A stretch of 64,000 nt of DNA from an uncultured Thermoleophilia bacterium (lineage in GTDB: Bacteria; Actinomycetota; Thermoleophilia; UBA2241), in assembly GCA_963715985.1 (NCBI GenBank), contig CAVQSP010000021.1, forward strand, positions 32,001 to 96,000. The letters are read 5' to 3'. Made by a program: the position numbers and the translations under genes. This document shows, piece after piece, positions 46,852 through 61,818 of this stretch; position 1 is the first letter of the stretch, and each line of letters starts with the position of its first letter. The notes below the pieces were generated by a model. That model was not told the origin of the DNA. It ran no database searches and saw only the letters and a list, made by a program, of their open reading frames with translations.

Positions 46852-47612
46852 TCAGATGACCGTGCGGCCGCCATCCACCATGAGCGTGTGGCCGACCACC
46901 ATGCCGGCGGCGTCCGAGGCCAGGTACACGGCCGCGCCAACGATCTCCGGCGGCTGCCCCACGCGGCCCACCGGCAGCGCGTCCAGGATCCAGGTGCGGT
47001 ACTCCTCGGTATCCAGGTACGGCGCGATCATGGGCGTGTCGAAGTCGCAGGGAGCGATGGCGTTGACGTTGATGCCGTGCTTGATCCAGTCGACGGCCAG
47101 CACACGCGTGAGCTGGTTCACCGCGCCCTTGCTGGCGCAGTACGCGGGCTGGTTGGGCACGCCGAGGTAGGCGTCGGTGGAGCTGAAGTTGATGATCTTG
47201 CCCGAACCCTGGGCGATCATCAGGCGGCCGACGGCGCGACACATGAAGAAGGTGCCGTTAAGGTTCGTGTTCATCACGCGCTGCCATTCGGCGTCACTGA
47301 GGTCCTCCGCCGGCCCGGTGAGGAAGACGCCGGCCGCGTTGACGAGGATGTCGATGCGGCCGAGATGCTCGGTGCGCGGCCGCCACTGCCGTCTGCACGG
47401 CGGCCGCGTCGCTCACGTCGCAGGGGAAGAACCTGGCGCGCGGGCCCAGCCGCTCCGCGGCCTCCCTCCCGCGCTCCTCGTTACGACTCGGCGATGGCCA
47501 CGTCCACGCCGAGCGTGACGTAGCCTCGGGCGATCGCGTATCCGAGGCCCGTCGCGCCGCCCGTGATGAGCGCCTTCTTGCCCTCGAGCGAGAACATCCG
47601 CGTGTAGTCCAT
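46852..47612 (-). CDS. Short-chain dehydrogenase/reductase (several frameshifts)
   Basis: ITGGATGLG, ILVNAAG, NTNLNG, YCASKG, VNAIAP, VDGG. Confidence 0.85.
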
Positions 47613-47664
47613 GTCGCCCCCCTCTGGTGTGCGAGAAGGCCCCAGTATCGGCCTCCGGCAGCGG

Positions 47665-48046
47665 GCGTGGCAAGGTGATCGTCGTGCACACGGAAGGCCG
47701 CAAGGCGGACCTCGCCCGTATCTACTCGCGGCGCTGGTTCTCGCAGCCTCCCCTCGTCCTGGCGGTGGTCTCCCTCCCCGGCGCCGCGTGGCGAAGGGTC
47801 GACGACAAGCCCTACGACGAGGTCGACGCGACGATCGCGATGGATCACATCATCCTCGCGGCCACCAGCCTCGGACTGGGCACGTGCTGGGTGGCCGACT
47901 TCGACCCGGTCGCCGCGCGTCAGGTGCTCGGGTTGCCGGACGACGTGGAGCCCGTCGCCTTCACCCCGCTCGGTCACCCTGCCCGCGAGGCTCCGCGCAA
48001 GCGCCGTCGGCCCCTCGAGCAGCTCGTGCGCTACGAGCGCTGGTAG
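47665..48046 (+). pseudogene. N-terminally truncated nitroreductase
   Basis: DATIAMDHIILAATSLGLGTCW present; RRS.R and APS motifs absent, with no room for them before the SDR start. Confidence 0.7.
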
Positions 48047-48054
48047 GACGCGGC

Positions 48055-48351
48055 TCAGCCGCGATCGATCTCCTCCAGGTGCCGCTCCCCGGGTTCGCCG
48101 CCCAGCATGGGGGCCAGCATCTCCATGAACCCGGTCTCGGTACGCCAGGCGTCGTAGGTGAGGTAGTGCTCGAGCGTCTCCCAGCGCTCCACGATAGAGA
48201 CCATCGCGGCGTCATCGTGGTCGCCGCACAGAGACGCCCCCCGGCAGCCCGCGAACGCGCGCGTGTCCTTGAGCGCCGTCCGCAGCGCGGCGACGAGCTC
48301 GTCCTTGCTCTGCGGCTTCGCCGGCAGATCGACGATCACGATCGCACCCAC
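48055..48351 (-). CDS. Antibiotic biosynthesis monooxygenase (ABM) domain protein
   Basis: DTRAFAGC, IVERWETLEHYLTY.AWR.ETG. Confidence 0.82.
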   Translation of the reverse strand: MGAIVIVDLPAKPQSKDELVAALRTALKDTRAFAGCRGASLCGDHDDAAMVSIVERWETLEHYLTYDAWRTETGFMEMLAPMLGGEPGERHLEEIDRG

Positions 48352-48603
48352 AGCACACCTCCCGGTTCCTCGTCCGCCGGCGCGGCCATGGCTCAGCGCC
48401 GGCGTCGTCCATCCTGGCAACGCGACGTCGCCATGGTAGACGCGCGTGCCGGGCTCGTACAGAGCGAGGCATGAGACCGCGAGCGCGTCTCCAATCCTGT
48501 CAACATGGGCGTTCGTTCCATGCAGAGTCGGGCGCTGCGGCCGACTCTTCTAGATGTCACAAGCCCCCGCCGGCACCGGCCGACTCGTTCCGGGAGGTCG
48601 CTC

Positions 48604-49143
48604 ATGCAAGTGCTCATCGCCCACAGAGACGCGCGAGTCAGAGCGTCGCTCACGAAGGCGATAACGGGCGGGCTCGACTCAGATCTCGACGTCGTGGAGC
48701 GCGACAGGGGCACCGCGGCGCTCGAGCTCCTCCTTCAAGAGAACGCGCCTCGGCTCGCCGTCGTCGACTGGGACCTGCCCGGGCTCGACGGCCCGGAGCT
48801 CTGCCGCATCGTGCGCGACTTCCACCTCGGCGGCCCTCCCTACGTCGTACTACTCGCCTCCGCGGATCATCCAGACGTGGAGGAGGGGCTTCTCGCCGGG
48901 GCCAACGACTGCATCCGCACCCCGGCCCGTGCCTCGGAGATCAAGGAGCGCGTGGAGGCCGGCAGGAGCTTCATCGAGGTGCCGTGGGAGTGCGCCTCCC
49001 GCAACTTGGGCCTCGAGGCGGTCATCGCGCACGACGACGAGGACGAAGCGTGGGGCGGGCCCGCGGGCGGCTCGGCCGGCGCGGGCTCGGGGTCTTCGTC
49101 GCCGGCCAGGGCCGAGCTGCAGGCGGTGCTGCACCAGCTGTGA
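48604..49143 (+). CDS. Stand-alone receiver-domain protein
   Basis: gggagg RBS; AVVDWDLPGLDGPELCR, GLLAGAND. Confidence 0.8.
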   Translation: MQVLIAHRDARVRASLTKAITGGLDSDLDVVERDRGTAALELLLQENAPRLAVVDWDLPGLDGPELCRIVRDFHLGGPPYVVLLASADHPDVEEGLLAGANDCIRTPARASEIKERVEAGRSFIEVPWECASRNLGLEAVIAHDDEDEAWGGPAGGSAGAGSGSSSPARAELQAVLHQL

Positions 49144-49169
49144 GCCTGGCCTCGTGCCCCGGTGCGTGA

Positions 49170-49197
49170 CGCGAAGCCGCCTTCGGGCGGCTTCTGC
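49170..49197 (+). terminator. UUCG hairpin; near-identical to 55171-55198
   Basis: cgcgaagccgcc-ttcg-ggcggcttctgc; 27/28 identity. Confidence 0.65.
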
Positions 49198-49506
49198 GTG
49201 ATGCTGTCTCATCGTCACCCGAGTGGACCGTCCGCAACGACCGCATCTGCACGCCGGCGGGCGAGCCGCTCCTCACTCCTGGGGCCATGGCTCGCGCGGG
49301 GTGGAATCCGATCATGCTGACAGCGGTGCTCTTCCTCGTCGTGACCCTGCTCGTGTTCGTTGCGGCGACCGTCGTCGCCAGGATTGGCAACGGCCCCCCG
49401 GGGGGAATGCCCCGCGCAAGCGGTCGACATGACGGCCGCCGGGGAAGAAGCTACGCTGGAGCCTGACCGGCGCCACGCTGGATCAGAAGACGCGAGGGAG
49501 CGAGCG

Positions 49507-50469
49507 TTGACCGACCACATCCTCACCGACCTCTCCCCGGCGGCCCTCGCCGCCGCCGTCCGGGCCAACCTGTACAGCTACTTCCGTCGCGCCGAGGCCT
49601 CCTCAGCAATGGACTTCGCGCGATTCGACGGGTTCGAACGCTGGGCGAGCGAGCACCCGTACGTTCTGCTCAACGGCGCGCTGTCGGTCCGCGACGCGAC
49701 GGAGGGTGACGCTTGCGACATCGATGTCACGCTGGAGTACTTCAGGGAGGCGCGCAAGACGGCGATGACGTGGTGGCTTGAGGACGGCGTGGCGCTCGAA
49801 GGCTGGCGGCGCCTGCTGACCGAGCGTGGGTTCATGCACCTGGCCGGACGTCACGGCATGGCCCTGGACCTCGACGCGCTGCCGGACACCGTGTCGCTGC
49901 CCGACGGCGCCTCAGTGGGCAGGGCCACACACGCGGACAACCTGCGTCCGTGGGCCCGCATCGTCACCAGGGTGCTCGGGTGGTACCTCGAGTCCGAACG
50001 GGCGACGTTCGAGTGGGCGGCGAGCTTCGGGGTGCTGCTGCCGACGCTCAACTACCTGGCCTACTTCCGCGGCAGACCGGTCGGGGCCTCGACCGTGCAC
50101 TTCGGCGCCGGCGTCGCCGGCGTGTACAACGTGTGCGTGGAGCCGCAAGCGCGCCGCCACGGGCTGGGAGCCGCGCTCGTGGTCGCGTCCCTGCTCGAGG
50201 CACGCGAGCTCGGCTACCGGGCGGCTGTCGTCGCGCCCTCCGACGCGGGCCTGCCGCTCTTCGAGCACCTCGGCTTTCGCCGGCAGTGCCGGGTGGACTA
50301 CTTCTTCCTCGGGCTGTCGGACTCGGCGCACCCCACGCAGTCGCCCATCTGTGACGCCCAGGCCCGACTGGCCGGCACGAAGATGGGCACCACGTCGTCG
50401 CTGAGCGAGCCGCGCCAGCCGGGTGGAGCCTGCGGCTCGGAGAGGCGACGGCACTGGGTGCCGTGGTGA
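49507..50469 (+). CDS. GNAT-family N-acetyltransferase
   Basis: gagggag RBS + TTG; AGVYNVCVEPQARRHGLG, GLPLFEHLGF. Confidence 0.85.
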   Translation: MTDHILTDLSPAALAAAVRANLYSYFRRAEASSAMDFARFDGFERWASEHPYVLLNGALSVRDATEGDACDIDVTLEYFREARKTAMTWWLEDGVALEGWRRLLTERGFMHLAGRHGMALDLDALPDTVSLPDGASVGRATHADNLRPWARIVTRVLGWYLESERATFEWAASFGVLLPTLNYLAYFRGRPVGASTVHFGAGVAGVYNVCVEPQARRHGLGAALVVASLLEARELGYRAAVVAPSDAGLPLFEHLGFRRQCRVDYFFLGLSDSAHPTQSPICDAQARLAGTKMGTTSSLSEPRQPGGACGSERRRHWVPW

Positions 50470-50477
50470 GCTGAGCG

Positions 50478-50649
50478 AGCACCTTCGCCCCGTGCGCCTG
50501 CCGCCAGGCGGCGGTGGCGTCGAAGAGCGGGCCGGGCCGGACGAAGATGACCGCCGCATGGCGCGGTGCACCTGCGGCGCCCCGCGCGAAGGCTCGACCA
50601 AGTCGTTGCCCGAGGTGAGGAGCACAGCGTCGAGCTTCGGCCCTTCGGC
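50478..50649 (-). repeat. DUF2075 3'-end remnant 1 (mosaic)
   Basis: 50478-50557 reads AAVIFVRPGPLFDATAAWRQAHGAKVL; 50600-50649 matches 56121-56170; 50563-50588 matches 56379-56404 (22/26). Confidence 0.9.
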
Positions 50650-50679
50650 CTTGCGATCGCTCTTGACGTGTCCACGTTC

Positions 50680-50729
50680 GTGAGCAGAATTTCTCAGGGT
50701 ACTGAGTAAATTGTAAACTACCTGCTCAC
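50680..50729. promoter_or_regulatory. Nested inverted repeat (probable operator) upstream of the AAA ATPase
   Basis: gtgagcag-aatttctcag-ggta-ctgagtaaatt...ctgctcac. Confidence 0.6.
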
Positions 50730-50733
50730 GGGC

Positions 50734-51906
50734 ATATTTGAACGATCCATTGTCTCCATTCTCGTTGACCGCCTCGGCGATGAGCGTCGCTTCGTGCAGG
50801 CGCTTCTCGGGCCGCGGCAGGTGGGCAAGACAACTGCCGTGTTGCAGTCTCGCGCCAAGCTCGAGGCACGCGGAGTCGGCTTCGTTCTCGCCTCAGGTGA
50901 CGAACCGCTGCTGCCTGGGCCGGCGTGGGTCGACCAGCAGTGGGAGACGGCGCGTGCGTTGGCATCCACCGGCCCGGTCGTCCTGGCCCTCGATGAGATC
51001 CACAAGTTGCCCGGCTGGGCCGGTCGCGTCAAGGCGAACTGGGATAGGGACACGCGAGATGGGACGGACGTGCGTCTCGTCGTGCTGGGCTCATCTCCGC
51101 TTCTTGTTGGGCGACGCCTGGAGGAGTCACTCGCCGGACGCTTTGAGGTCGTCCCGGCGACGCACTGGCGGTGGACGGAGTGTCGAGACGCGTTCGGGTG
51201 GGACGTGGAGACCTTTGTGTTCTTCGGAGGGTACCCGGGAGCCGCGCCGCTCATCGACGACTTCGCACGCTGGCGCCGCTACGTGCTGGATGCTCTCATT
51301 GAGACGACGGTGACGCGGGACGTGCTCTCGCTCGGGCGCATCGACAAGCCCGCGTTGCTGCGCCAACTGTTCTACCTGACCTGTGAGCTCTCCGGCCAGG
51401 TCGTCTCGTACTCCAAGCTCCTGGGACAGCTGCACGATGCCGGCAACACCACCACGCTGGCGCACTACCTCCACCTGCTGGAGGAGGTCTGGCTGGCGTG
51501 CGGCGTGCCGAAGTACTCGGGGTCGGTGGTCCGCAAACGCTCCTCCAGCCCGAAGCTCCTGGTGCTGGACACGGCTCTCATGAGTGCCGTCAAGGGTCTG
51601 ACGTTCGAGCAAGCCCGCGGCGATGCGGACTACTGGGGAAGGCTGGTTGAGACTGCGGCCGGTGCTCACCTCATGGCGCAGGCGCAGGTGGCGCCCAGGC
51701 GCGTCATGTACTGGCGGGAGCGAGACCTCGAGGTGGACTACGTTGTCGAGGAGCTTGGGCGACTCAGCGCCGTCGAGATCAAGAGCGGCCGCGAGCGCGA
51801 GGGATCTCGTCGCGGTCTCGACGCCTTTCTGGCCCGCCATGCCGCCGCGGACGTCCGCCTCGTCGGCCCCGGCGGCACTCCCCTCGAGCAGTTCCTCGCG
51901 GAGTGA
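50734..51906 (+). CDS. AAA_14 ATPase with DUF4143 C-terminal domain
   Basis: GPRQVGKTT, LDEIHK, LGSS, ESLAGR, GGYP, EVDYV, AVEIKSG; the apparent start reads ATA. Confidence 0.9.
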   Translation: MFERSIVSILVDRLGDERRFVQALLGPRQVGKTTAVLQSRAKLEARGVGFVLASGDEPLLPGPAWVDQQWETARALASTGPVVLALDEIHKLPGWAGRVKANWDRDTRDGTDVRLVVLGSSPLLVGRRLEESLAGRFEVVPATHWRWTECRDAFGWDVETFVFFGGYPGAAPLIDDFARWRRYVLDALIETTVTRDVLSLGRIDKPALLRQLFYLTCELSGQVVSYSKLLGQLHDAGNTTTLAHYLHLLEEVWLACGVPKYSGSVVRKRSSSPKLLVLDTALMSAVKGLTFEQARGDADYWGRLVETAAGAHLMAQAQVAPRRVMYWRERDLEVDYVVEELGRLSAVEIKSGREREGSRRGLDAFLARHAAADVRLVGPGGTPLEQFLAE

Positions 51907-51913
51907 GCTCGAG

Positions 51914-51978
51914 CTACTGCAGCACCTTCGCCCCGTGCGCCTGCCGCCAGGCGGCGGTGGCGTCGAAGAGCGGGCCGG
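51914..51978 (-). repeat. DUF2075 3'-end remnant 2
   Basis: GPLFDATAAWRQAHGAKVLQ*; 51921-51978 identical to 50478-50535. Confidence 0.93.
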
Positions 51979-52084
51979 CTCCGGACGGGCGGCGGGGCGC
52001 GCGGGGCACGCAGGATGCGTGCCGATCGCGCCCCGCCGCCCGGTCAGGAAACGCCCCCCGGCTTCTTGTCCGGGCTCGTCACGC

Positions 52085-53549
52085 TCACGGCATCTGCGCC
52101 GGGAGCCCCTTGGCCAGGTTGTAGTCGGTCGTCGCGCGCTCGCCCGAGAACGCCGTCAGGTTGGCGATCGCCTGCGCCTGGTTCGTCGACCACAGCGACG
52201 CGGCCGTGCTCTCCACGCCCGCAGCCTGCGCCAGCGTCGCGTTGAAGAACCCGTCGTAGGTGCTGCGGACCAGCCCGATGTAGTGCTTGTAGCGCAGCTC
52301 GCCGCCCACGGTGCCCTGCTTGTCGAGGCTATCGGCGACGGCCTTGAAGGCGCCGAAGGCCGTCTTGTTCGCCCACACGGACGGCACGCTCGTGATGCTG
52401 TCGTAGAACGGGGTGAGCCCGCTGGAGCAGGCGCGCGAGGGCGCGAACCAGAGCACGCCGCCCACGCCGTCCGGCAGCCAGCTGCGCGCCTGGAACACCG
52501 CCGAGTAGTCGTTCCACGCGCAGCAGATGGGCCTGTCGGTCATGGCGTGCGGGGTCATCGTGGTGTAGCCGTTGGTCTGGTCGAGCGCGGTGCCCTCGTA
52601 GTGATAGCGATTGACCGCGACGATGCCGCTCACAGTGAGCCTGGTGTCTGCCGTCATGAACACCGGTCGCGTGGCGTAGGGCATGGACACGTCGAACGTC
52701 CGCGAGGACGAGAGCACGTGCGCCGCGCCCCACAGGCGGTTGGTGTTGTACCAGTTCTGGAGATCGTCGCGATTGCCGTAGGCCCAGGCGACGTCGAAGG
52801 GACCCTGGCTCGGGTCGTACAGGCCGAGGCTCTGCGCGAAGGTGACGAGGTCTGCGGAGCCGCGGAAGTTGTTCGTGTCGCTGAGGTCGACCTGGCGGAT
52901 GCGCGGCATGTTGGGCTGCGCGTAGTACATGGTGTCGGGCACGCGCGCCGCCGCCCAGTGATGGCCGCCGAGCACCTCGACCGCCCACGCCTCGTTCTCG
53001 TCGATCATGCCGAAGCTGCCGGCCGCGTCGCCGCTGAAGCCGATGGTGTTGCCCCACTGGGCCAGCAGGTCGAGCGCCTGGCGGCAGGTGGCGGACTTGG
53101 CGAGGAGCTGGTCCCACATGTCCTTGCCGACGCCCTTGTTGGGATACGGGTCGGCGGCCTCGGCGACCGGGTTCAGTTCGGTGGCGACCCCGTAGCAGGC
53201 GGCGAACTGGCGCGTGTTGATGCCGCCCTCCGGGACGTTGCCGGAGGCGTTCAGCTTCACGAAGCCGTAGGTGGTGGAGGTCGCCGGGACGATCTCCAGC
53301 GGCACGTGGGTGTTGGCCGTCCAGTCGTTGTTGTAGCTCATGAGCACGGAGCCGTCGGCCGTGGCGCGCTTGCCGGCCAGCACGAACATGCAACGCTGAT
53401 GCGGCGAGCCTGCGGCCGCCGCCCCTTGGCTGGGCCGCCGCCTGGTCGTGCCAGACGGCGGCGCCGCCGACGGCGGCCGCCAGCAGCGCCAGCAGCAGGA
53501 GCAGGAGGAGCGGGTGGCGGACGAGTGGTGTGCGCGCCAGCGGTCTCAT
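52085..53549 (-). CDS. Secreted C69-family dipeptidase (Ntn hydrolase; frameshift near 53400)
   Basis: signal peptide; mature N-terminus C-MFVLAGKRATADGS; EVLGGHHWAAARVPD, YNTNRLW. Confidence 0.85.
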
Positions 53550-53740
53550 CGATGGAACCTCCCCGAAGGCGTCTCGGTCGCCGCTGTCCCCTCAGAAGGC
53601 GGCGCCGACTCTGCACGTCGCCTATCGGATTCGGCGCGCGGAGGAACTGAGTACACCGCGTTGTCTGATCAGACGCGAGGCCTTCCGCGTGGTCCTGGTG
53701 GTCGCCCGGGCAGGCTCGCCGGCAGCGAGACGGGCGGCGC

Positions 53741-53784
53741 TCAGGCGAGCTGTTTGACCCCGTGCGCCTGCAGCCAAGCGGCGG
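53741..53784 (-). repeat. DUF2075 3'-end remnant 3
   Basis: reads AAWLQAHGVKQLA*. Confidence 0.8.
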
Positions 53785-53809
53785 GACCGTCCAGCTTCCC
53801 CGGACTTCG

Positions 53810-54454
53810 TCACCAGGTCGCGGGCTTCGCGAGTCTTCTCCCGTCGGCCGCCGGCACGGGATCGGGCAGCAGATGCCCGGGCAGGCTTCTGGGGCTGATC
53901 TTGAAGAGGGCGTCGGCGTGACTACGGAAGGCCTGGTTGGACCGATAAGGAGGGAAGAGGCAGTAGAGCTTGAGCTCCGGTCGCAGCCGGCGCGCCGCAT
54001 CGAGGGCCGGCAGAAGATCGGTATCGCCAGACACGAGTGTGAGCGCGGCACAGTCCCGTTGAGCCGCGGACTCGACTATGGCGGCGGCGATCGCGACGTC
54101 CGTTTCCTTCTCCTCGTGCCGCCTGAGGAGCACCTCGCAGGTCCGGGAGCGGTAGCGGATGTCCTTGGACTTGAACACGCCCAGATGCGGTGTGACGCCG
54201 GTCGTGCGCAGGGCGTCGATGTAGCGCTCGTGACGGGCAACGGTGCCGGGGCGTTTGCGCTCCAAGTGATGGGCCAGTGCGCTGAAGTAGTCGGATATGC
54301 TCGAGTCTGGCCCGGGTCGATGGCTGAAGTGCCGAGCGGCAGAGCGACCTCAGGTCCAGCCAGCGGCAGTCGACGCCGGACTTCTCGCCGGGTCTCCGCG
54401 CATGGAATGGTAGACGTTGAAGCCATCCACCACGAAGCGGACAGTAGTTGACAT
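53810..54454 (-). CDS. NYN (LabA/DUF88 PIN-like) nuclease 1 (frameshifts at 54260-54400)
   Basis: FVVDGFNVYHS, YYFSA, EEKETDVAIA, VSGDTDLLP, C-terminal KPATW. Confidence 0.85.
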
Positions 54455-54461
54455 TGGCCCC

Positions 54462-54530
54462 CGAGAAGAAGAAGCCCCCGGGACCGTAGCCCCGGGGGGA
54501 CCAGGAAGCCGGAGCCTCGCTGGCGATGAC
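54462..54530 (-). ncRNA. Candidate leader RNA with two UNCG hairpins before NYN 1
   Basis: TTGACT-N17-CAGCAT promoter (54565-54537); ccagcgaggc-UCCG-gcttcctgg; cccccggggc-UACG-gtcccggggg followed by cttcttcttc. Confidence 0.45.
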
Positions 54531-54623
54531 TCGTTCATGCTGCCACCGTGGCCGGTGGCAGTCAATGCGCAGAGCCAGAGTGCCGGTTGACGTTCGCGAA
54601 GGTCGGCTGCGGACGGGTCGTGC

Positions 54624-54670
54624 CCAGCACCTTCACCCCGTGCGCCTGCAGCCAGGCGGCGGTGGCGTCG
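54624..54670 (-). repeat. DUF2075 3'-end remnant 4
   Basis: reads DATAAWLQAHGVKVL; matches 55900-55946. Confidence 0.9.
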
Positions 54671-54697
54671 TCGCTTTGACAGCCCACCGGCACGCAC

Positions 54698-55050
54698 CTA
54701 AACTGACCTTGGTCGGGTATTGCGTAGCGGTCCCCGGCCACTTTCTTTGGGCAAGACGACCAGCCCCGCGCCCTGCCATTGACCTGATGGGCCGTGGCGC
54801 AGCTTCTTGCGGACCACCTCCAGGTCAGGCTTGGGTTCCATCCCAGCGACCCAACGGCCGAGAGGCGTGACGACGAGGTCGGCGATCTCGAGTCCGGCTC
54901 CCCCGCTTGCTTTGGTCTCGAACTCGAAGGATGCGACGCGGCGGCGGAGGACATCTGGCCTGACGTAGCGAGTGCCGTTCAGGCGCAGCATGTCCCAGGC
55001 GACGGTGAGTTCGCGATCGAGCCGTTGGGTGCGTGGCTCCACGTGGACGC
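54698..55050 (-). pseudogene. C-terminal fragment of a DUF3800-like protein with a 3' stem-loop
   Basis: GLEIADLVVTPLGR motif; the N-terminal Y.DESG region is absent; ggccggg-gaccgctacgcaata-cccgacc hairpin at 54711-54739. Confidence 0.6.
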
Positions 55051-55144
55051 GGCAGCACCGGCCACGAGGCGGCACGGTGACAGGTGAGAGGTAGACGATG
55101 CGCGGCGCCGCTTGACCGGGCGCTCGTGCCGGGCATAATGAATC

Positions 55145-55205
55145 CACTGTTCCCGCGCTCCGGCGCGGGCCGCGAAGCCGCCTCCGGGCGGCTTCTGCTT
55201 TTCTC
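55145..55205 (+). ncRNA. Candidate leader RNA with two UNCG hairpins before NYN 2
   Basis: TTGACC...CATAAT promoter (55112-55139); cccgcgc-UCCG-gcgcggg; gaagccgcc-UCCG-ggcggcttc followed by tgcttttct. Confidence 0.45.
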
Positions 55206-55231
55206 CAGCGAACGTCAACTGAGGGGATGAC

Positions 55232-55885
55232 GTGGATTCAGGCCGTCTGCGCACCGGCGTGTACATCGACGGCTTCAACTTCTACTACGCCTCGTTCAGG
55301 CGCGCAGGTTTCGCGGCGTACAAGTGGCTGGACCTGGTGAGGTTCTGCGACGTCGCACTGCCGCGTAACCATGTCGAGTTCGTGCGCCTGTTCACTGCGC
55401 TACTCGACCCAGCGCGGGGGAGGGGGGCCCAGCGTGCGCGTCAAGACGCCTACCTCGCGGCCCTGGCGACGCTACCGCGGCTCTCGGTGCACTACGGCGA
55501 GTTTGCAGAGCACTCTCGGAGGCTCCGCCTGGTCCGTCCACGCCCCGGCGGGCCCGCCACTGCAGAGGTGTGGGTGCCGGAGGAGAAGGGATCGGACGTC
55601 AATCTGGCGTCGCATCTTCTGCTCGACGGCTTCCGCGACGCTTGCGATGTCGCCGTAGTCGTGTCCAACGACGCCGATCTTCTCGAACCGGTCAGGATCG
55701 CGCGAGACGAGCTCGGTAAGACGGTCGGTGTGCTGAGAGTGGAGGGTGGTCAAAGGAAGTGCATCTTCGGGGGCCGAGTCGATTTCGTCCGCACCGTGCG
55801 ACACGCGCACTTCGCTGCGGCTCAGCTTCCCACAACGGTGCGAGATAGGCGTGGTCGGCTCATTGCGAAGCCGGCCGAGTGGTGA
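55232..55885 (+). CDS. NYN (LabA/DUF88 PIN-like) nuclease 2
   Basis: VYIDGFNFYY, KWLDL, EEKGSDVNLA, VSNDADLL, C-terminal KPAEW. Confidence 0.92.
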   Translation: MDSGRLRTGVYIDGFNFYYASFRRAGFAAYKWLDLVRFCDVALPRNHVEFVRLFTALLDPARGRGAQRARQDAYLAALATLPRLSVHYGEFAEHSRRLRLVRPRPGGPATAEVWVPEEKGSDVNLASHLLLDGFRDACDVAVVVSNDADLLEPVRIARDELGKTVGVLRVEGGQRKCIFGGRVDFVRTVRHAHFAAAQLPTTVRDRRGRLIAKPAEW

Positions 55886-55894
55886 GGTACCGGC

Positions 55895-57060
55895 CTACTC
55901 CAGCACTTTCACCCCGTGCCCCTGCAGCCAGGCGGCGGTGGCGTCGAAGAGCGGGTCGGGCGGGACGAAGATCACTGCCGCGTCACGCCCCCGCGTCAGC
56001 AGCACCCGATAGGCGTTGACCCGCAGCCGGTACGGGTCCTTGACGTGCGAGGCACGCGCGTGGCGCTTGGCGTACTCGTTTGTCCAGGCCTCGCGGCCGT
56101 GCCGATCGGCGGCGCGGACGAAGTCGTTGCCCCAGGCGAGGAGCACGGCGTCGAGCTCCAGGCCCTGGGCGCCGAACTCGGTGACGCACTGCGTGAGGGT
56201 GCGGCAAGAGCGCTGGTCGCCGTCGCCCTCGCCGTACCACGGGCCGAGCTGGAGGCGCTGCGTGGCGTGCCAGCCGTTGGGGATGCCCCAGTGCGTCTCC
56301 AGGACCTTGTCGCGGGAGGAGGCGAGGAGGCCGTAGCGGGCGTCCGGCGCCTCGGCGTAGCGGTCGTAGAGATAGTGTGCGGTGTGCCTGCGGCGCCCCA
56401 CACGTTGGCCAGACTACGTCGGCTAATCGTTGGCGACGTCGAGGTCGCGCGTCATGCGCAGGTGGTAGCCGTCCTTCTCGAGGCTGGCGGCGAGCTCGCG
56501 ACCGTGCACCGGGTCGTCGCCGTCGAGCAGGAGGTCGACCCACTGGTCGAGGTCGTCGGCGAAGTGGAAGCGCAGCTCGACGGTGAGCTCGAGGGCCGCG
56601 TGCGACTGCGTCCGCGCGGCCAGCTTCCTGCCTTCCGCATCGTCACCGCTGAAGAACTCGCGCAGCACCGCCTCCGGCGCGTGCACGGTCCAGCCGCCCG
56701 GGTCGCCGGCCTTCTCCAGTGCCGTGCGCCACTGCCCGAGGCCGGCCTCCTCGCCCACGTGGATTTCCTGCCCTGAGCCGATGAGCCCCACGAGCACGCA
56801 CCAGCCGGGGATGCGCTCGCCGAAGTCCACGAACGCCTCGGGCTCGCTCTTGGGGAACGGCAGGCTGTGCTTGGCCGTGAACTGCTCGAGGTCCCAGGCG
56901 CGCTGCGCCTCGTCGTAGACGATGACGTGCTGCGGCGGCACCGCTTTGGTGTCCCCGAGGTACTGCTTCACGTAATTCTTGACGTCGCGGAGATTGCTGT
57001 CCCCGAGGTACTGCTTCACGTAGTTCTTGACGTCGCGGACGAAAGTCTTGCCACCGCCAC
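55895..57060 (-). pseudogene. DUF2075 (Schlafen group 3-like helicase) C-terminal part, 5'-truncated and interrupted
   Basis: VYDEAQRAWD, GSGQEIH.GEE, RYGLLASS, TEFGAQGLELD, NAYRVLLTRGRD; Walker A region missing; ~50-bp insert with a stop at 56376-56425. Confidence 0.85.
56951..57039. repeat. In-frame tandem duplication with 48-bp period inside DUF2075
   Basis: [13 protein letters not shown] occurs twice; the 41-bp units differ at one base. Confidence 0.9.
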
Positions 57061-57135
57061 AACCTGGCCGGGTGGTGGGGGAGCGTCGCCCGCCGTGTTG
57101 TGGGTGCCGTCTCTCTGTCGTGTCATAATCGTCGC

Positions 57136-58213
57136 GTGGCTTCCTTCCGCTTCATCGACCTCTTTGCCGGCATAGGCGGCATGCGTCTTGGCTTTGAGCC
57201 CGTCGGTGGTCGGTGCGTCTTCACCAGTGAGTGGAACGAGAAGGCCCAGCAGACCTACCGCTCGAACTTCGGTGATGAGGAGATTGCGGAGACATCACCC
57301 AGATTCCCGCCGAAGACATCCCGGCTCACGAAGTTCTGCTTGCCGGCTTCCCCTGTCAGCCCTTCTCCATAGCGGGCGTTTCCAAGAAGAACGCCTTGGG
57401 CGCGTCGCCACGGCTTCTGTATCCCACGCAGGGCACGCTCTTCTTCGATGTGGCGCGCATCATCGCCCATCATCAGCCGAAGGCGTTCCTGCTCGAGAAC
57501 GTCAAGAACCTGACGTCTCATGATCGCGGGAACACCTTCCGGGTGATTCTGAACACCCTTCAGAAGGAGCTTGGCTACTCCATCACTTGGCGAGTAGTCG
57601 ACGCGAAGGGGTTTGTGCCCCAGCATCGAGAGCGCATCCTGATTGCGGGATTCCGTGAACCGTCTGACTTCGGTTTCGACATAGTTGACATTCCAGATCC
57701 TGATTCTGGGCCCCGGCTGCCGATCTATCCTCATCCGGAGAACGGCACCGAGCCCGTCGAGCCGCGGTACACCAGGGGCGACAACGCCACGGTGCTCGAC
57801 AAATACACTCTTACTCCTGGACTTTGGGACATCTGAGGGCTAGACGCGGCCAAGCATCGCGCAAAGGGCAATGGCTTCGGGTTTGGACTGGTGGGGCCGG
57901 ACGACGTTGCTCGTACCCTGTCTGCCCGCTACTACAAGGATGGATCGGAGATTCTGGGTCCGCCGCGACCCCGATCGGCCGCGCCGTCTCACCCCGCGAG
58001 AATGTGCCCGTTTGATGGGCTTCGACCGAGCCGAGCGGGAACCGTTCGTCATCCCTGTTGTCTGACACACAGGCCTACCGGCAGTTTGGCAACGCGGTCG
58101 TCGTACCAGTCATTGGGGCGGTAGCTGCGGCGATGGCACCGTTCGTCACTGACGGCAACACGCTAGGCCTGTTGGCGCGTCGAGCCGTCGTCCCTGAGCA
58201 GCTCTTCGTTTGA
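57136..58213 (+). CDS. dcm: DNA cytosine-5 methyltransferase, Dcm-like (multiple frameshifts)
   Basis: [57 protein letters not shown]; CATAAT -10 just upstream of the GTG. Confidence 0.9.
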
Positions 58214-58232
58214 GCGCACGCGGCAGCCGGCC

Positions 58233-58705
58233 GTGACTGATATCACCTCTCCTGAGAAGCGCAGCCGGATGATGTCGACCATCCGCGGGAAGAACACGCG
58301 CCCGGAGATGATGGTGTGACGTGCGCTGTTTGAACGTGGCTTTCGCTATCGGTTGCACGCACGGTGCCTGCCCGGAACGCCTGATCTGGTTTTCGCTCGC
58401 TTTCGAGCTGCAGTCTTCGTTCACGGGTGTTTCTGGCATGGTCACGATTGCTCGTATTTCCGATGGCCGGCGACCCGACCAGAGTTCTGGCGGGCAAAGA
58501 TCACGAGGAATCAGGCAGTGGATCAGGTCGCGCGTCTGGCCCTTCGTGAGTCAGGCTGGAGGGTATTGACTGTGTGGATGCGCGCTCCGAGATTGCTCTG
58601 ATGAACAGAGACAGGCCGTGTACGACGCCGCGGCTGACTGGCTGCGCGGCGACACGGCCGAGCTGCGAGCTCGAAGGCGACCTCGGGGGGGAGAATCCAG
58701 AATGA
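58233..58705 (+). CDS. vsr: Very short patch repair endonuclease (in-frame TGA and frameshift, probably errors)
   Basis: DITSPEKRSRMMSTIRGKNTRPE, LPGTPDLVF, FVHGCFWHGHDC, GWRVLTVW. Confidence 0.88.
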
Positions 58706-60037
58706 ACGAGACCCTTAACTCTGGACAACCTGATGGCGATGTTGCGCGAGAGGGGGTGTCTCCGCGTGTTTGCAAAGCCGCTGGCCGCCAACGACAACTC
58801 CAAGAACCAAGTGTACTTCGGCGGAGGGTTTCACGCGCTGAACGTAGTCCCTTACGGAGACGCACTTGCGTCGCGATCGGGCAAAGGCACCGTCTTCAAG
58901 GCGCCTGTGGATTTCTGGTGGCTCTCGTCTGATGGGAAGGCGTGCCAAGCACCGGGCGCACAGCTGATTCTCTATCCTCAGTACCCCGAAGTCCGCTTCT
59001 CGGGCTTCCTCCATGGCTGTTCGGAAGCGCCCTCCAGCCTCATGGCCTCTCGGGAGGAGGGCAGAGTCCTTGTGTTCGGCACTCGGAGTGACGGGCGTGT
59101 CTTTGCGTGGGTGGGATCCAGCGAGTCGGCTGTTGCACGGAACCTGGCGAAGCGACGGCGATTGGGCTACTTCAGGGGAACCGGTGTTTTCGAGGAGCTG
59201 CCCGGGCAGAGACCTTCGTCGGAGGTGCCGGCCTTGAGGTGCAACTGTTGAGGAGCTCGGACGTATTCACAGACTCGGTGGATCGAGGCGAAGCGTCTGC
59301 GCGCAGAATGGGAATACAAGTGTCGTGCCTGGTCGGAACTCCGGCGGGAGTACGCTGAGGCAGAGCTCGGAGTTGCGGCGAACAGCGTGGTGGGGCCCGA
59401 CTTCCTCGGCTATGAGGTCAAGCAGTACAAGGTCAGCAACTTCAGCCGCCCGTCGTCTGGAGGGCCCATCACCCTGATGACGCCTGAGCCGACAGGTGGA
59501 CTGTACCGGGATGAGGGCGTCGAAGCGTTTGTGCGGATCTACGGCTACCCGGACAAGAGCCGCAGACCGGATCGCATCAACTTCGGCGGTGTTCACCGAG
59601 CCCGCACAAGAAGGTGGATGTGTAACGAACGGGACTGACGCTGACGCTCGTGGGCTGGGACTCCGAGCGAGGTCTCATCGTCGATGCCCAAGGAGGAATC
59701 GCACTTCTGGATGATGATCTCACGGTGGCGGCCATCTGGTACTACTCTGGTTGATTTCCCACTGGAACAAGAAGCACGACCGAGCTGTTTACGTCCCGTC
59801 GATGAGATCCGCCCCGGAACCCGCCCGATACCGCTATGGGGATCTCGTGCGGATGAGAAGGAGCCGATTTCCTCCGGGTCCTGAAGGCATTCGATTCTGG
59901 AGCCCTACTGCTCGATCCTGGCATCAAGGTGGAGAGCGCCGTACAGCGCCCAAGGTCAAGCGGCGGAGTCAGTTTCCGTCCAGTCAGCTGACGTGGGCGC
60001 CTTGTATGAGTCCATGAGGACGGTAGGCGTTCTCTAG
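58702..60037 (+). CDS. MvaI/BcnI-family restriction endonuclease (many frameshifts)
   Basis: LAANDNSKNQVYFG, LILYPQYPEVRFSGFL, PDFLGYEVKQ, ITLMTPEPTGG, DRINFGG, HWNKKH.RAVYVP. Confidence 0.75.
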
Positions 60038-60109
60038 CACAGGCCCCGTCTACCCCCGGTCCTTTCTTCCCCTCCCCTTCGTCAACCGTATTAGAATCCC
60101 CATAGGATC

Positions 60110-61818
60110 GTGGCGGGCCGTTGGAATGCTCGGCTGTCCAGCTAGTGTCGTGGGGACGATCTTGGGGGTGGGGGCCGTGCTTGAATGATTCCGACGACGC
60201 CTACTCGTTCGACGCGAAGCTCGGCGGAGCGCCGGGTCTTCTCCATGTTGTCCGAGGTCGACCTTGTGGCCCAAGCTGGTGCTTCCATTCGCTGAATCTC
60301 TCCGAGCATGAGTACAAGTTGGTCGGGGAATTCGACTTCGTGCTCTTGAGTCCGCTGGGACTCCTCGTTCTTGAGGTCAAGGGAGGGGGGGTCGACTGTC
60401 ATGACGGGGTCTGGATCTTCACCGACCGCTTCGGAGTCGAGCACCGTCGCAACGAGAGCCCGTTCGCACAAGCTCGGTCCGGGATGTTCTCCCTGCGCAG
60501 CGGCTAGAAGTTGAGCTTGGCCGATCGGCGGTCCAGGGTCTGCCGTTCGGTTACGGCGTGATGCTGCCGGACCAGCCGTTCAAGATCCCGTCAGTCGAGT
60601 GGTCGCGCGAAATGGTGATTGACAAAGAGGCGCTGGGAGCCGGGTTGCTTCAGGAGAAGCTCCACTGGCTGTTCACGTACTGGCGGGAGAAGAACGGCGT
60701 GCGACGCGACTGTTCCGCCGACAATCTGCGTCCGCCGTGGCACAGCTGCTCCGCCCGGACTTCGATCCATCCCGGATCTCCATCACAGGCTGGAAGACCT
60801 GGATCAGCGCATGCAACGTCTGACCGACGAGCAGTACGAACGCCTGGACGCGTTCGAAGGGACCCCACGAATCCTGTGCATGGGTGGCGCAGGCACCGGC
60901 AAGACGTTCATCGCGGCGGAGATGGCTCGTCGCCACGCAGCGGCTGGGGACAGAGTGTTGATGACCTGTGCGAGCCCGGTGCTTGCTGCATACCTGCGTG
61001 CTCGGCTGTCCTCATTCGGAATCGACGTGATGCCGCTGGAGCAGGCGCTGGGCGAGCTTCCGCAGGGCGAGCCCTACGATGTCCTTCTCCTAGACGAAGC
61101 CCAGGACGTGCTGGACTTGGAAGTCCTGTTTGCGTTTGACGCCTGCTCCGCGAGGGCTCGAGCACGGCACCTGGCGGATGTTCTGTGATGTGAACAACCA
61201 GAGCGCCCTCTCGGGCGGATACGACCCAGAGGCGCTGGAGTACTTGAAGCGGCTTGGCGCTGTCGGCGAGCTCAAACGGAACTGTCGCAATACGCACGAG
61301 ATCGTGTTGCAGACAAAGCTCCTCACAGGCGCGGACCTCGGTACCGCAAGTGCTGGTCACGGTTTGCCGGTGACCACTCCGGTTCTACGAAGGGCCAGAA
61401 GAGCAGCTCGAACAACTCGAGCGACATCTCGCCGGACTTGCGGAGGAGGGTGTCGGTCGGCGAAATCACTTTGCTCTCTCCACTTCCTTCGAACAAAGCA
61501 TGGCCTCGAGCCTTCCGCGGCGATGGCAGCGTCGCCTTCGAAGGTGGACCCTGCTCTCGCCGCGTCGTGGCCGGTCAGCGACCTTTCTTTCGCCACGGTG
61601 GGTGACTTCAAAGGCCTGGAGAACAGGTTCATTTGCCTGCTCGACATTGCACAGTCTTGCGAGGACGAGCCGTTGGCACTCTCCCTGCTCTATGTGGCGA
61701 TGAGCAGGGCCCGCGCCGGACTCTGGGTGGCCATGCGATTCGGCGCTTGAAGCCACGGTCGAGGAGATCAGCATGCGCAATCTTCCCCTCTGACTCCCGA
61801 TCTGGAGGTCGTCGATGA
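60110..61818 (+). CDS. NERD nuclease + SF1 helicase-like protein (many frameshifts)
   Basis: GEFDFVLL..GLLVLEVKGG, PFAQA, GGAGTGKT, LDEAQD, NCRNT, FKGLE, LYVAMSRAR. Confidence 0.8.

Follow-up and report, generated by a model that had tools for sequence, protein, structure and literature searches.

Cassettes bounded by remnants of a helicase gene in an uncultured Thermoleophilia bacterium: probable displacement at a homology anchor

Defence islands and arrays rich in toxin-antitoxin (TA) genes are usually ascribed to integrases or transposons, or they are left as unexplained "genomic sinks." How could such an array be built where no recombinase gene is linked to it and where unit after unit is bounded by a piece of one and the same gene? 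The question is raised by a window of 64,000 nucleotides (nt), namely G000:C21:32001-96000, from the metagenome-assembled genome (MAG) of an uncultured Thermoleophilia bacterium (GenBank assembly GCA_963715985.1, contig CAVQSP010000021.1, here C21), in which the 3′ end of a NERD-DUF2075 helicase gene, hereafter the anchor gene, is found in five minus-strand copies within 50477–57070. In our judgment the array was probably built by homology-anchored displacement, with the gene remnants serving as recombination linkers. This reading rests on units that match intact gene ends and their neighbours in relatives, and on the recurrence of such arrays in other genomes and in metagenomes. The scars of each entry are preserved at this locus, and the process can be read from them directly.

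Five copies of one gene end

The genome (4,350,992 bases in 22 contigs, ~70% GC; C21 has 134,863 bases) is 88.8% complete with 7.29% contamination. It probably holds some indel errors, and the frameshifts in NYN1, Dcm and the island described below may not all be real. A repeat search of the window returned a 47-nt unit at 50475–50521, 51918–51964, 53745–53791, 54623–54669 and 55899–55945, always in the same orientation and with 79–94% identity to the reference copy, and an 87-nt version at 50478–50564 and 55902–55988 (87% identity). By tblastn the last 29, 19, 15 and 15 residues of the window's own gene match 50563–50477, 51973–51917, 53791–53747 and 54669–54625, respectively. A first-pass annotation of the window had described these five copies, the terminal alleles of the remnants (KVLG, KQLA*, KVLQ* and KVLA) and the gene content of the intervals, all of which was confirmed by repeat search, tblastn and Pfam. 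Its remnant coordinates were right within a few bases, except that the copy placed at 53741–53784 is better given as 53745–53791 and that the one placed at 51914–51978 reaches 51987. The dispersed repeat that the same annotation had considered as a refutation is ruled out: of the five matches that a degenerate 26-nt pattern (up to 2 mismatches) has in the whole genome none lies outside this locus, all are on the same strand, and reversing the pattern as a control gave no match. There is no tRNA gene in the window. In 47000–64000 Rfam gave no family above chance, only two chance-level matches at E up to 1, and thus no known RNA family for the repeats or for the DUF3800-associated element. The features of the array and its borders are as follows.

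48505–49143, plus strand: response-regulator gene (Pfam Response_reg), the array's conserved distal flank
49146–49259, no strand assigned: copy of the NYN2-upstream element with hairpin GAAGCCGCC..GGCGGCTTC (73% identity to 55147–55227)
49360–50469, plus strand: GNAT acetyltransferase cargo (Pfam Acetyltransf_7/1), convergent with remnant 1 and 9 nt apart from it
50477–50649, minus strand: remnant 1, the last 29 codons (50477–50564) and then degenerate pieces of further-upstream gene sequence (50568–50649)
50710–51906, plus strand: AAA_14+DUF4143 ATPase (Pfam; PADLOC PDC-S01, E 1e-140), convergent with remnant 2
51914–51987, minus strand: remnant 2, the last ~19–22 codons, terminus KVLQ*
51986–52042, no strand assigned: 27-nt inverted repeat, 89% complementary and terminator-like, just behind the C69 gene
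52085–53389, minus strand: C69-family dipeptidase cargo (Pfam Peptidase_C69, E 9e-52; NCBIfam C69_fam_dipept under its cut-off)
53745–53791, minus strand: remnant 3, the last ~15 codons, most diverged, terminus KQLA*
53810–54420, minus strand: NYN1, an NYN-domain gene (Pfam NYN), open reading frame (ORF) 53810–54265, N-terminal part out of frame in this assembly
54624–54670, minus strand: remnant 4, the last 15 codons, reading on as KVLG...
54672–55053, minus strand: 3′ half of a DUF3800 gene (RNase H fold), with a ~75-nt non-coding element (tblastn and blastn against DUF3800 genes of relatives)
54672–54750, minus strand: this conserved ~75-nt non-coding element, terminus TGTCAAAGCG (alignment of 17 copies)
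55090–55231, no strand assigned: NYN2-upstream element, moving together with NYN2 (matched by 10 metagenome contigs and 4 genome loci, and in a comparison of relatives by G024, G019, G013 and G002)
55232–55885, plus strand: NYN2 (Pfam NYN; PADLOC HEC-09, E 2.6e-32, profile 3–202 of 203), convergent with the helicase end and 10 nt apart from it
55895–57070, minus strand: 3′ piece of the helicase gene (residues ~293–650 of protein P0001 of G027; Pfam SLFN-g3_helicase, formerly DUF2075)
56695–57058, minus strand: gene segment that recurs beyond the window, 17 kb away, at C21:106228–106545, where the 5′ piece of the gene ends (blastn)
57100–64000, no strand assigned: start of the low-GC island (61–62% GC), which splits the helicase gene and continues to C21:106227

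Could the array be an artefact of collapsed repeats or chimeric joins in the MAG? The completeness and contamination values leave room for it, as do the many fragmented ORFs of the island, in part perhaps due to indel errors. However, the repeats are short (45–90 nt) and diverged (79–94% identity), and the same architecture is found in independent genomes and in 34 metagenome contigs. Moreover, two junctions, GNAT/remnant 1 (50288–50520) and remnant 2/C69 end (51934–52124), are spanned by independent short contigs of another public run, which argues against a misassembly private to this MAG. An artefact is thus hardly credible. Public reads of 24 runs contain 23–36% of the sampled words. The Logan contigs of four of the runs considered (X1–X4) are short, and 50644–51739 (AAA-DUF4143) has little or no cover in them, nor has 55302–55849 (NYN2) in three of the four; this was not used as evidence for absence. 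Two joints seen in one contig each, 49091 to 53151 and 50598 to 55989 (shorter side 20 nt), were judged to be mapping effects caused by the repeats.

The anchor gene, its cargo and its relatives

In at least 12 genomes of the genus the anchor gene is a single open frame of 649–972 amino acids with a NERD-like N-terminal region followed by the helicase. The orthologue P0001 from G027 (652 amino acids) matches the PADLOC candidate PDC-S41 along its full length (E 2.3e-119, profile positions 6–633 of 657), a candidate defence system. In those parts of the literature that were covered by searches for PDC-S41, HEC-09 and PDC-S01 there was no mention of PDC-S41 and no test of what it does. The DUF2075 helicases include, by the available text of the source, the staphylococcal nuclease-helicase Nhi (bioRxiv 10.1101/776245).

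The window's copy of the gene begins at about residue 293 and is damaged. It has an insert of 51–53 nt with two in-frame TAG codons (about 56377–56429); since only 2 nt separate 56376 from 56430 in contigs from three other runs (X1, X2 and X4), insert-free alleles exist. It also has a 48-nt tandem duplication (56946–57039, 96% identical), which is in perfect frame and repeats 13 residues. As a side observation, part of the 56377–56429 insert resembles 50563–50605 beside remnant 1 (77%).

Where is the rest of the gene? A tblastn search of the whole genome located its 5′ part (residues 4–390 of P0001) at C21:106266–107457 on the same strand, heavily frameshifted. A direct repeat of 299 nt (C21:106228–106526 versus window 56695–56991, 88.3% identity by blastn), extended by a further 64 nt at 93.8%, flanks the 17.1 kb between the two pieces. 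This DNA has 63% GC versus 70% on the window side, and the drop begins exactly at 57,000–57,100. It contains a fragmented Dcm methylase and Vsr (both with homologues in relatives by tblastn), restriction endonuclease-like ORFs, a DEAD-type helicase and a NERD+helicase pair. Pfam scans of 10 ORFs from the island gave Helicase_C for one and no match for the other nine, and thus no recombinase family. Thus, the window's main copy is itself a remnant, with a defence island as cargo, as the first-pass annotation had suspected. To the right, where it would have looked for an intact gene and a recombinase, lies the frameshifted 5′ piece, and the contig has no recombinase of the four families searched for. 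In the metagenome contigs L134 and L153 a restriction-modification (RM) cassette splits the gene in the same way: one piece runs to about residue 391 and the next resumes at about residue 299. Around the island, GC falls from ~70% to 59–65% over about 21 kb (window 57100–64000 plus C21:96001–110000, L185), and the ORFs are short, fragmented and for the most part without a Pfam match.

The units of the array can be compared with intact loci. Remnant 4, its spacer and NYN1 are colinear with an intact gene end in G027 and the spacer and NYN gene that follow it there, and a remnant+NYN unit of G019 also aligns continuously with them. The main gene end with a convergent NYN2 recurs in G024, L147, L152 and L182, and remnant 2 with a convergent AAA-DUF4143 gene recurs in L159, L183, L153 and L102, the homologues in L159, L183 and L102 being likewise placed and 74–76% identical in nucleotides. 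Homologues of the response-regulator gene, convergent with the helicase gene and downstream of it, form a shared distal flank in G004, G025 and G026; the gene end is separated from this flank by 1.1 kb (G025), 3.4 kb (G026), 5.6 kb (G004) and, in the window, 6.75 kb. These alignments support the view that each remnant was once the gene end of a unit. In G002 the end of the full gene falls into a different allele clade from its three remnants, and foreign alleles therefore do enter. Three proposals of the first-pass annotation are thus borne out: serial displacement anchored on the gene, in that the units are colinear with intact loci; donors that bring their own allele, in that the clades differ in G002; and cargo that varies among relatives, in that the gene end and the flank lie 1.1–6.75 kb apart.

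How widespread is this architecture? The anchor gene is present in 28 of 54 genomes of the genus, and arrays, meaning separated, same-strand, 5′-truncated pieces, are found in at least five of the 28 carriers (G000, G002, G004, G019 and G076). These relatives are species-level representatives with DNA only about 70–80% identical, so that young events cannot be dated. A motif scan of metagenome contigs, the counts of which are descriptive, yielded 62 contigs, 58 of them with at least one tblastn piece, 34 with at least two and 10 with at least three; in 34 of 34 the pieces lie on one strand. The 105 pieces comprise 6 of full length and 68 that are 5′-truncated away from contig ends, 15 of the 68 also being without the 3′ end. 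The gaps between pieces measure 537–5590 nt (median 1215 nt). When 76 genome-contig loci were tested with their own last 50 residues, a test that very short or diverged remnants would escape, six had extra matches, and same-strand downstream remnants were seen only in L064 and L093, both from genus members, and in the archaeal L097.

The latter locus, from a Methanoregulaceae archaeon MAG, has a helicase orthologue (L097:11571–14413) at 39% identity and, 2.3 kb downstream, a 285-nt copy of its own 3′ end with 96.8% identity and one indel, which stops at the equivalent codon. Frameshifted ORFs and a small helix-turn-helix gene lie between helicase and remnant. Of the events seen, this one looks the youngest. 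Tail synteny in the Methanoregula relatives of L097 was uninformative.

Copies on one strand at one place might also have arisen by tandem duplication and decay, that is, by unequal crossing-over between sister chromosomes followed by deletions and a later replacement of neighbours. Indeed, G002 has two adjacent remnant+DUF3800 units with near-identical remnants and identical spacers, two remnants of G076 are each other's closest match, and remnants erode by deletion. However, no locus with two full-length copies was found among 22 relatives' loci, 80 genome-contig loci and 58 metagenome contigs; the units differ in cargo, and this cargo corresponds to genes beside intact copies in other genomes; the full gene of G002 belongs to another clade than its remnants; and the island is foreign in composition. 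Duplication and decay is for these reasons quite improbable as the origin of the array.

The array cargo is rich in TA and defence genes, which agrees with the enrichment in nuclease and TA genes that had been noticed at first; clusters of cargo ORFs across the arrays bear it out. The clusters are DUF3800 (13 contigs), PIN_3 (7), AbiEii (6), RhuM (6), DUF6941 (5), NYN (5) and GNAT (4) with a TacA1-type antitoxin (3). A further cluster of 7 contigs (representative L166:4920–5798), for which Pfam gave no match, we tentatively take to be AbiEi-like. Other cargo includes HATPase_c_4-type, HTH_17, NTP_transf_2 nucleotidyltransferase and DUF6994 genes, a Dcm+Vsr+SacI-like RM module and one 5.6-kb sugar-uptake block. 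Among the cargo of G002 are a RES-domain gene and the SRA domain that is part of the anchor where the two are fused. Of the window's cargo genes, C69, NYN1 and DUF3800 are co-oriented with the anchor, and the other three (GNAT, AAA-DUF4143 and NYN2) are convergent with it.

Some of the cargo requires comment. NYN1 has two extra bases in the alignment with G027 and G019, and contigs of run X4 are without one base at 54378 and one at 54401; the frameshift may therefore be strain-specific or an assembly error. The AAA-DUF4143 frame is open from 50710 with its first ATG/GTG/TTG at 50794. For the GNAT gene no homologue was found in the 22 relatives' loci, and of 196 pattern matches in metagenome contigs none was confirmed. 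The element at 49146–49259 also matches the NYN2-upstream regions of G024, G013 and G019 and appears to act as a second kind of linker. The GNAT gene looks as if it had replaced an NYN2 gene between the NYN2-upstream element and the gene remnant.

The window's DUF3800 ORF has no Pfam match; Pfam DUF3800 was found for the full-length gene of G002. Directly behind DUF3800 genes lies the ~75-nt element, with 28 invariant columns in 17 copies (window 54672–54750, L019:10094–10201, L019:8403–8510, L037:8628–8735 and 13 more), while the adjacent genes are only ~50–80% identical. There are two subtypes, and the terminus is TGTCAA(A/G)(A/G). Its consensus RNA structure is weak (RNAalifold −6.8 kcal/mol, compensatory changes in 3 of 11 pairs). 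Eleven unrelated DUF3800-associated RNA motifs of unknown function have been described, according to the part of the paper available (Weinberg et al., 2017, PMC5737381), and the element may be a further one.

How the units may have entered

In the displacement favoured here, incoming DNA with part of the helicase gene and foreign neighbours would recombine with the resident copy via the shared gene sequence, and this entry would duplicate the shared segment rather than replace it. The outcome would be one continuous gene copy, then the new cargo, and then a 5′-truncated copy that keeps the old downstream genes. Repeated entry would give a one-strand row of cassettes (0.5–5.6 kb), each bounded by a gene remnant and with TA pairs, NYN and DUF3800 RNases, ATPases, RM modules and occasional housekeeping genes as cargo. 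The common 3′ boundary (...GVKVL) would be the point where homology between alleles stops; the remnants would share their 3′ end codon for this reason, and no special site would be needed. In the middle of the gene the same process could have left the 299-nt repeat that flanks the 17-kb island.

What kind of crossover duplicates its own homology? An anchor segment is duplicated in every event, 45–600 nt at the 3′ end and about 300–360 nt mid-gene. Homology duplicated on both sides of an insert is the product of a single crossover (Campbell-type) by which a DNA circle enters through general recombination of the host. Such entry is presumably the source of the duplications here, as in the two-stage model put forward for rhs tips, and they fit it at least as well as they fit homology-facilitated illegitimate recombination (HFIR); the circle and the dependence on RecA are presumed. 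The remnants would moreover serve as portable homology, by means of which cassettes could be excised and inserted anew, exchanged among arrays and passed from one lineage to another; the remnants themselves would erode by small deletions. Any benefit of the array to the cell we only infer.

A 22-codon remnant with the junction CACGGATGGAYGAC|GTCCCGC is present in at least nine contigs, where it sits behind a DUF3800 gene of type A, one of the diverged type B or other DNA, and ahead of the NYN unit or others. At least 11 metagenome contigs have the DUF3800|remnant junction; remnant 4 belongs to this 22-codon type, from which it differs by a deletion of about 31 nt. From the shared junctions in varied contexts and from this deletion it follows that remnants are inherited, moved, recombined on both sides and eroding. 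The strict chronological order that the first-pass annotation had proposed could thus not be established, several junctions being old and common to different genomes or contigs and the split by an RM-type insert at residues ~293–395 being shared with L134 and L153; the array did not simply grow one step after another in this genome.

These junctions also bear on HFIR, in which a transformed linear donor pairs one-sidedly with the gene and its far end is joined illegitimately at a microhomology, giving a chronological array. Anchor homology, variable 5′ breakpoints (their variation had been noticed in the first-pass annotation; the remnants begin between about residue 290 and about residue 636) and a contig without a recombinase of the four families fit this model, as does a possible microhomology of 4 nt (CGAC) where DUF3800 meets remnant 4. 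However, HFIR usually deletes recipient DNA rather than duplicating the anchor, and every event here leaves a duplicated anchor segment, including the 299-nt mid-gene repeat. In addition, several junctions are common to many contigs in differing contexts, so that most of the array was passed on or transferred in blocks rather than arising here through separate illegitimate events. The preference of the first-pass annotation for HFIR is not established, and we regard HFIR as unlikely to be the main process. The same model, in which the non-homologous end is integrated beside the anchor by illegitimate recombination, has been proposed for the immunity-gene arrays of Vibrio cholerae's type VI secretion system (T6SS), as the accessible text of that work states (PMC5361080).

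Is a recombinase needed at all? On the whole of C21 there was no match to PF00589, PF00239, PF00665 or PF01609 (tyrosine and serine recombinases, rve and DDE_Tnp_1), in agreement with the lack of integrase and transposase reported at first for the window. A site-specific enzyme of the integron-like or Xer type encoded elsewhere could nevertheless insert cassettes as circles into a core site right where the gene ends, the variable remnants being gene fragments that the cassettes bring along beside their attachment site. Several findings accord with this: all remnants have one 3′ boundary, cassette sizes and cargo are like those of chromosomal integron cassettes, the junction of cargo and remnant travels as a unit, the end of the DUF3800 module is nearly constant, a AACGTCAACC-like motif lies 10–40 nt behind several tails and module ends, and there are tyrosine recombinases on other contigs (11 matches to PF00589, 7 above the cut-off; genes of the other searched families also lie off C21). 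Against it stand the absence of the four families from the 135-kb contig and from the 10 island ORFs, the truncated pieces without 3′ end (15/68), the mid-gene event at a different place in the gene (residues ~293–395) and the variation of module ends by up to about 17 nt. The repeats are, moreover, simple pieces of the gene that show no conserved palindrome, and Rfam gave nothing above chance in 47000–64000. No extra DNA-level constraint was found on the last codons, synonymous conservation there being 0.55 versus about 0.55 gene-wide. A recombinase acting from elsewhere thus has as little probability as HFIR. The end-joining protein Ku (PF02735) was not found in the 88.8%-complete genome, and circularisation via Ku is neither supported nor excluded by this.

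It should be noted that a number of points weigh against homology-anchored displacement. The 5′ breakpoints are not evenly spread but cluster (of 68, 11 lie at residues 460–479, 12 at 490–509, 10 at 520–529 and 10 at 620–639), and the distal end of the DUF3800 module is within about 0–17 nt of one motif in many contexts. The clusters are for the most part junction types common to several contigs, and we read them as shared descent plus trimming to functional boundaries, but they might reflect preferred sites, and the seven tyrosine recombinases on other contigs could act in trans. No circle or excision product was seen. A cassette-free form is hinted at only by two short-contig joints (shorter side 22–30 nt), 54547 to 55908 in run X1 and 54548 to 55902 in run X3, which connect the main gene end straight to the spacer below remnant 4. 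Some remnants offer only 45–70 nt of homology, a poor substrate for general recombination, and the first junction of each kind must still be made by an illegitimate join. The low GC extends over the 5′ piece of the gene and 2.5 kb beyond, so that this block may have come in by ordinary allelic replacement of a locus that was split before. Finally, the motif itself was used to choose the metagenome contigs, and several of them represent similar organisms from different samples, so that their counts cannot be taken as unbiased or independent.

Known arrays compared

Chromosomal integrons and clusters of attC sites lacking integron integrases (CALINs) are arrays of small cassettes at one locus with a repeated separator, with TA and acetyltransferase genes as cargo and with variation between relatives. 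The array described here shares the cassette row at one locus, the repeated element, the TA-rich cargo including an acetyltransferase and the variation among relatives. An IntI-type tyrosine recombinase beside the array, which a CALIN does not require, is not found (no PF00589 on C21). attC sites are imperfect palindromes with conserved core and inverse-core sites; the repeats here, by contrast, match the helicase gene's coding 3′ end nucleotide by nucleotide, over ~45 to ~600 nt. Integron cassettes are mostly promoterless and co-oriented, whereas the cargo here lies on both strands, often with its own promoter region, and its boundaries are imprecise. The term "integron-like" used in the first-pass annotation holds as an analogy only.

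Integrative islands at the 3′ ends of tRNA or protein genes restore the 3′ end upon insertion and leave the old end as a direct repeat on the far side, and repeated use of a 3′ end builds tandem arrays, in which respect the two are alike. Island accretion, however, involves an integrase and a fixed att core. Neither was found here; the cassettes are as small as 0.5 kb, the repeats vary in length and 15 of 68 pieces are without the 3′ end.

The remaining systems are compared as far as the available parts of the publications go. For rhs genes, homologous recombination via a circular intermediate and a two-stage model for the tips have been proposed (Jackson et al., 2009, PMC2935791). The likeness to dissociated rhs tips is that a full-length gene is followed by same-strand 5′-truncated copies that keep part of the conserved core, here in G002, G076, G004 and many contigs, and that the pieces are evolutionarily conserved rather than recent, with no dedicated recombinase (PMC2935791). 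In rhs, however, the displaced part is the variable toxin tip with its immunity gene and the core lies upstream, whereas in the array it is the conserved 3′ end of an intracellular defence helicase that is kept (PMC2935791); the variable part here consists of whole unrelated genes behind the stop codon, in either orientation, with one event mid-gene. A further difference is that in the window even the longest copy is truncated, its 5′ part being 17 kb away. As in displacement arrays, displaced units match intact gene+neighbour arrangements elsewhere (NYN1 versus G027, NYN2, AAA-DUF4143), but a polymorphic toxin domain with cognate immunity gene was not found here. The orphan C-terminal/immunity modules of cdiA are a comparison taken from the reference list of PMC5361080 only.

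In the T6SS effector-immunity arrays of V. cholerae, for which sequential displacement and HFIR were proposed and the comparison with integrons was drawn (Kirchberger et al., 2017, PMC5361080), the serial entry of modules likewise pushes older ones outward and old 3′ ends are shifted back. There the immunity genes match the displaced effectors, which gives a clear selective logic, whereas the cargo here is a mixture of TA, RNase, ATPase, RM and metabolic genes (PMC5361080). Unlike in the T6SS arrays, the anchor fragments here are homologous to each other and able to recombine again. A study of 2024 on embedded defence genes also describes, in its accessible text, a defence locus as a sink for other defence cassettes; it is the source of the HEC- and PDC- models, by which the cargo here includes HEC-09 and PDC-S01 and the anchor is PDC-S41 (bioRxiv 10.1101/2024.01.29.577857). 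The embedded genes of that study lie between intact system genes, with neither mechanism nor scars given in the text available, whereas here the scars are prominent and the anchor is often destroyed (bioRxiv 10.1101/2024.01.29.577857). Arrays of DUF2075 gene remnants are not described in those parts of the literature that were searched for DUF2075 and defence, rhs displacement, and HFIR with gene cassettes.

What would follow if displacement at the anchor holds? It would be a process with a defence gene as homology anchor, without a linked recombinase, with exchangeable cassettes, and common in an abundant uncultured lineage of soil and wetland; and it would offer a concrete, testable model of how defence genes come to be embedded within and beside others of their kind. 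Should general recombination by itself suffice for an integron-like cassette economy, accessory-gene hotspots should be sought via truncated copies of flanking genes and not via recombinases. One may tentatively go further, although we doubt it more than we believe it, and take the PDC-S41 gene end for a portable, recombinase-free attachment sequence: circles with 50–600 nt of it would enter any copy and leave via the flanking remnants, and the Thermoleophilia and at least one methanogen would keep, without an integrase, an integron-like population-wide pool of TA and defence cassettes. In a bolder form of this idea the nuclease-helicase of the anchor would stimulate recombination at its own locus. 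The arrays in any case list candidate defence and TA modules, among them DUF3800 with its conserved RNA-like element, NYN/HEC-09, PDC-S01, DUF6941 and DUF6994.

Some minor observations may be added. In two loci the helicase frame continues into an SRA/YDG (modified-cytosine-binding) domain, namely in L027 (G013, 972 amino acids) and L028 (G003, 897 amino acids); the apparent first cargo of G002 is such an SRA domain, split from the helicase by a frameshift, and in L119 (Winogradskyella, Bacteroidota) an SRA match begins within 16 nt after the helicase gene. Ahead of the AAA-DUF4143 gene, 50700–50794 is unusually AT-rich, with 28 open codons before the first ATG/GTG/TTG. An NYN2-type upstream element sits right behind the response-regulator gene, ahead of GNAT. 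A motif of the form AACGT(C/A)AACC is seen 10–40 nt behind gene remnants and DUF3800 elements, where the next unit starts, e.g., at window 54590–54600 and in L022, L024, L029 and L037; it could be a regulatory or a recombination site. Away from the array the genome has a second, full-length DUF3800 gene (C14:167488–168246) and a further NYN gene (C21:118490–118933).

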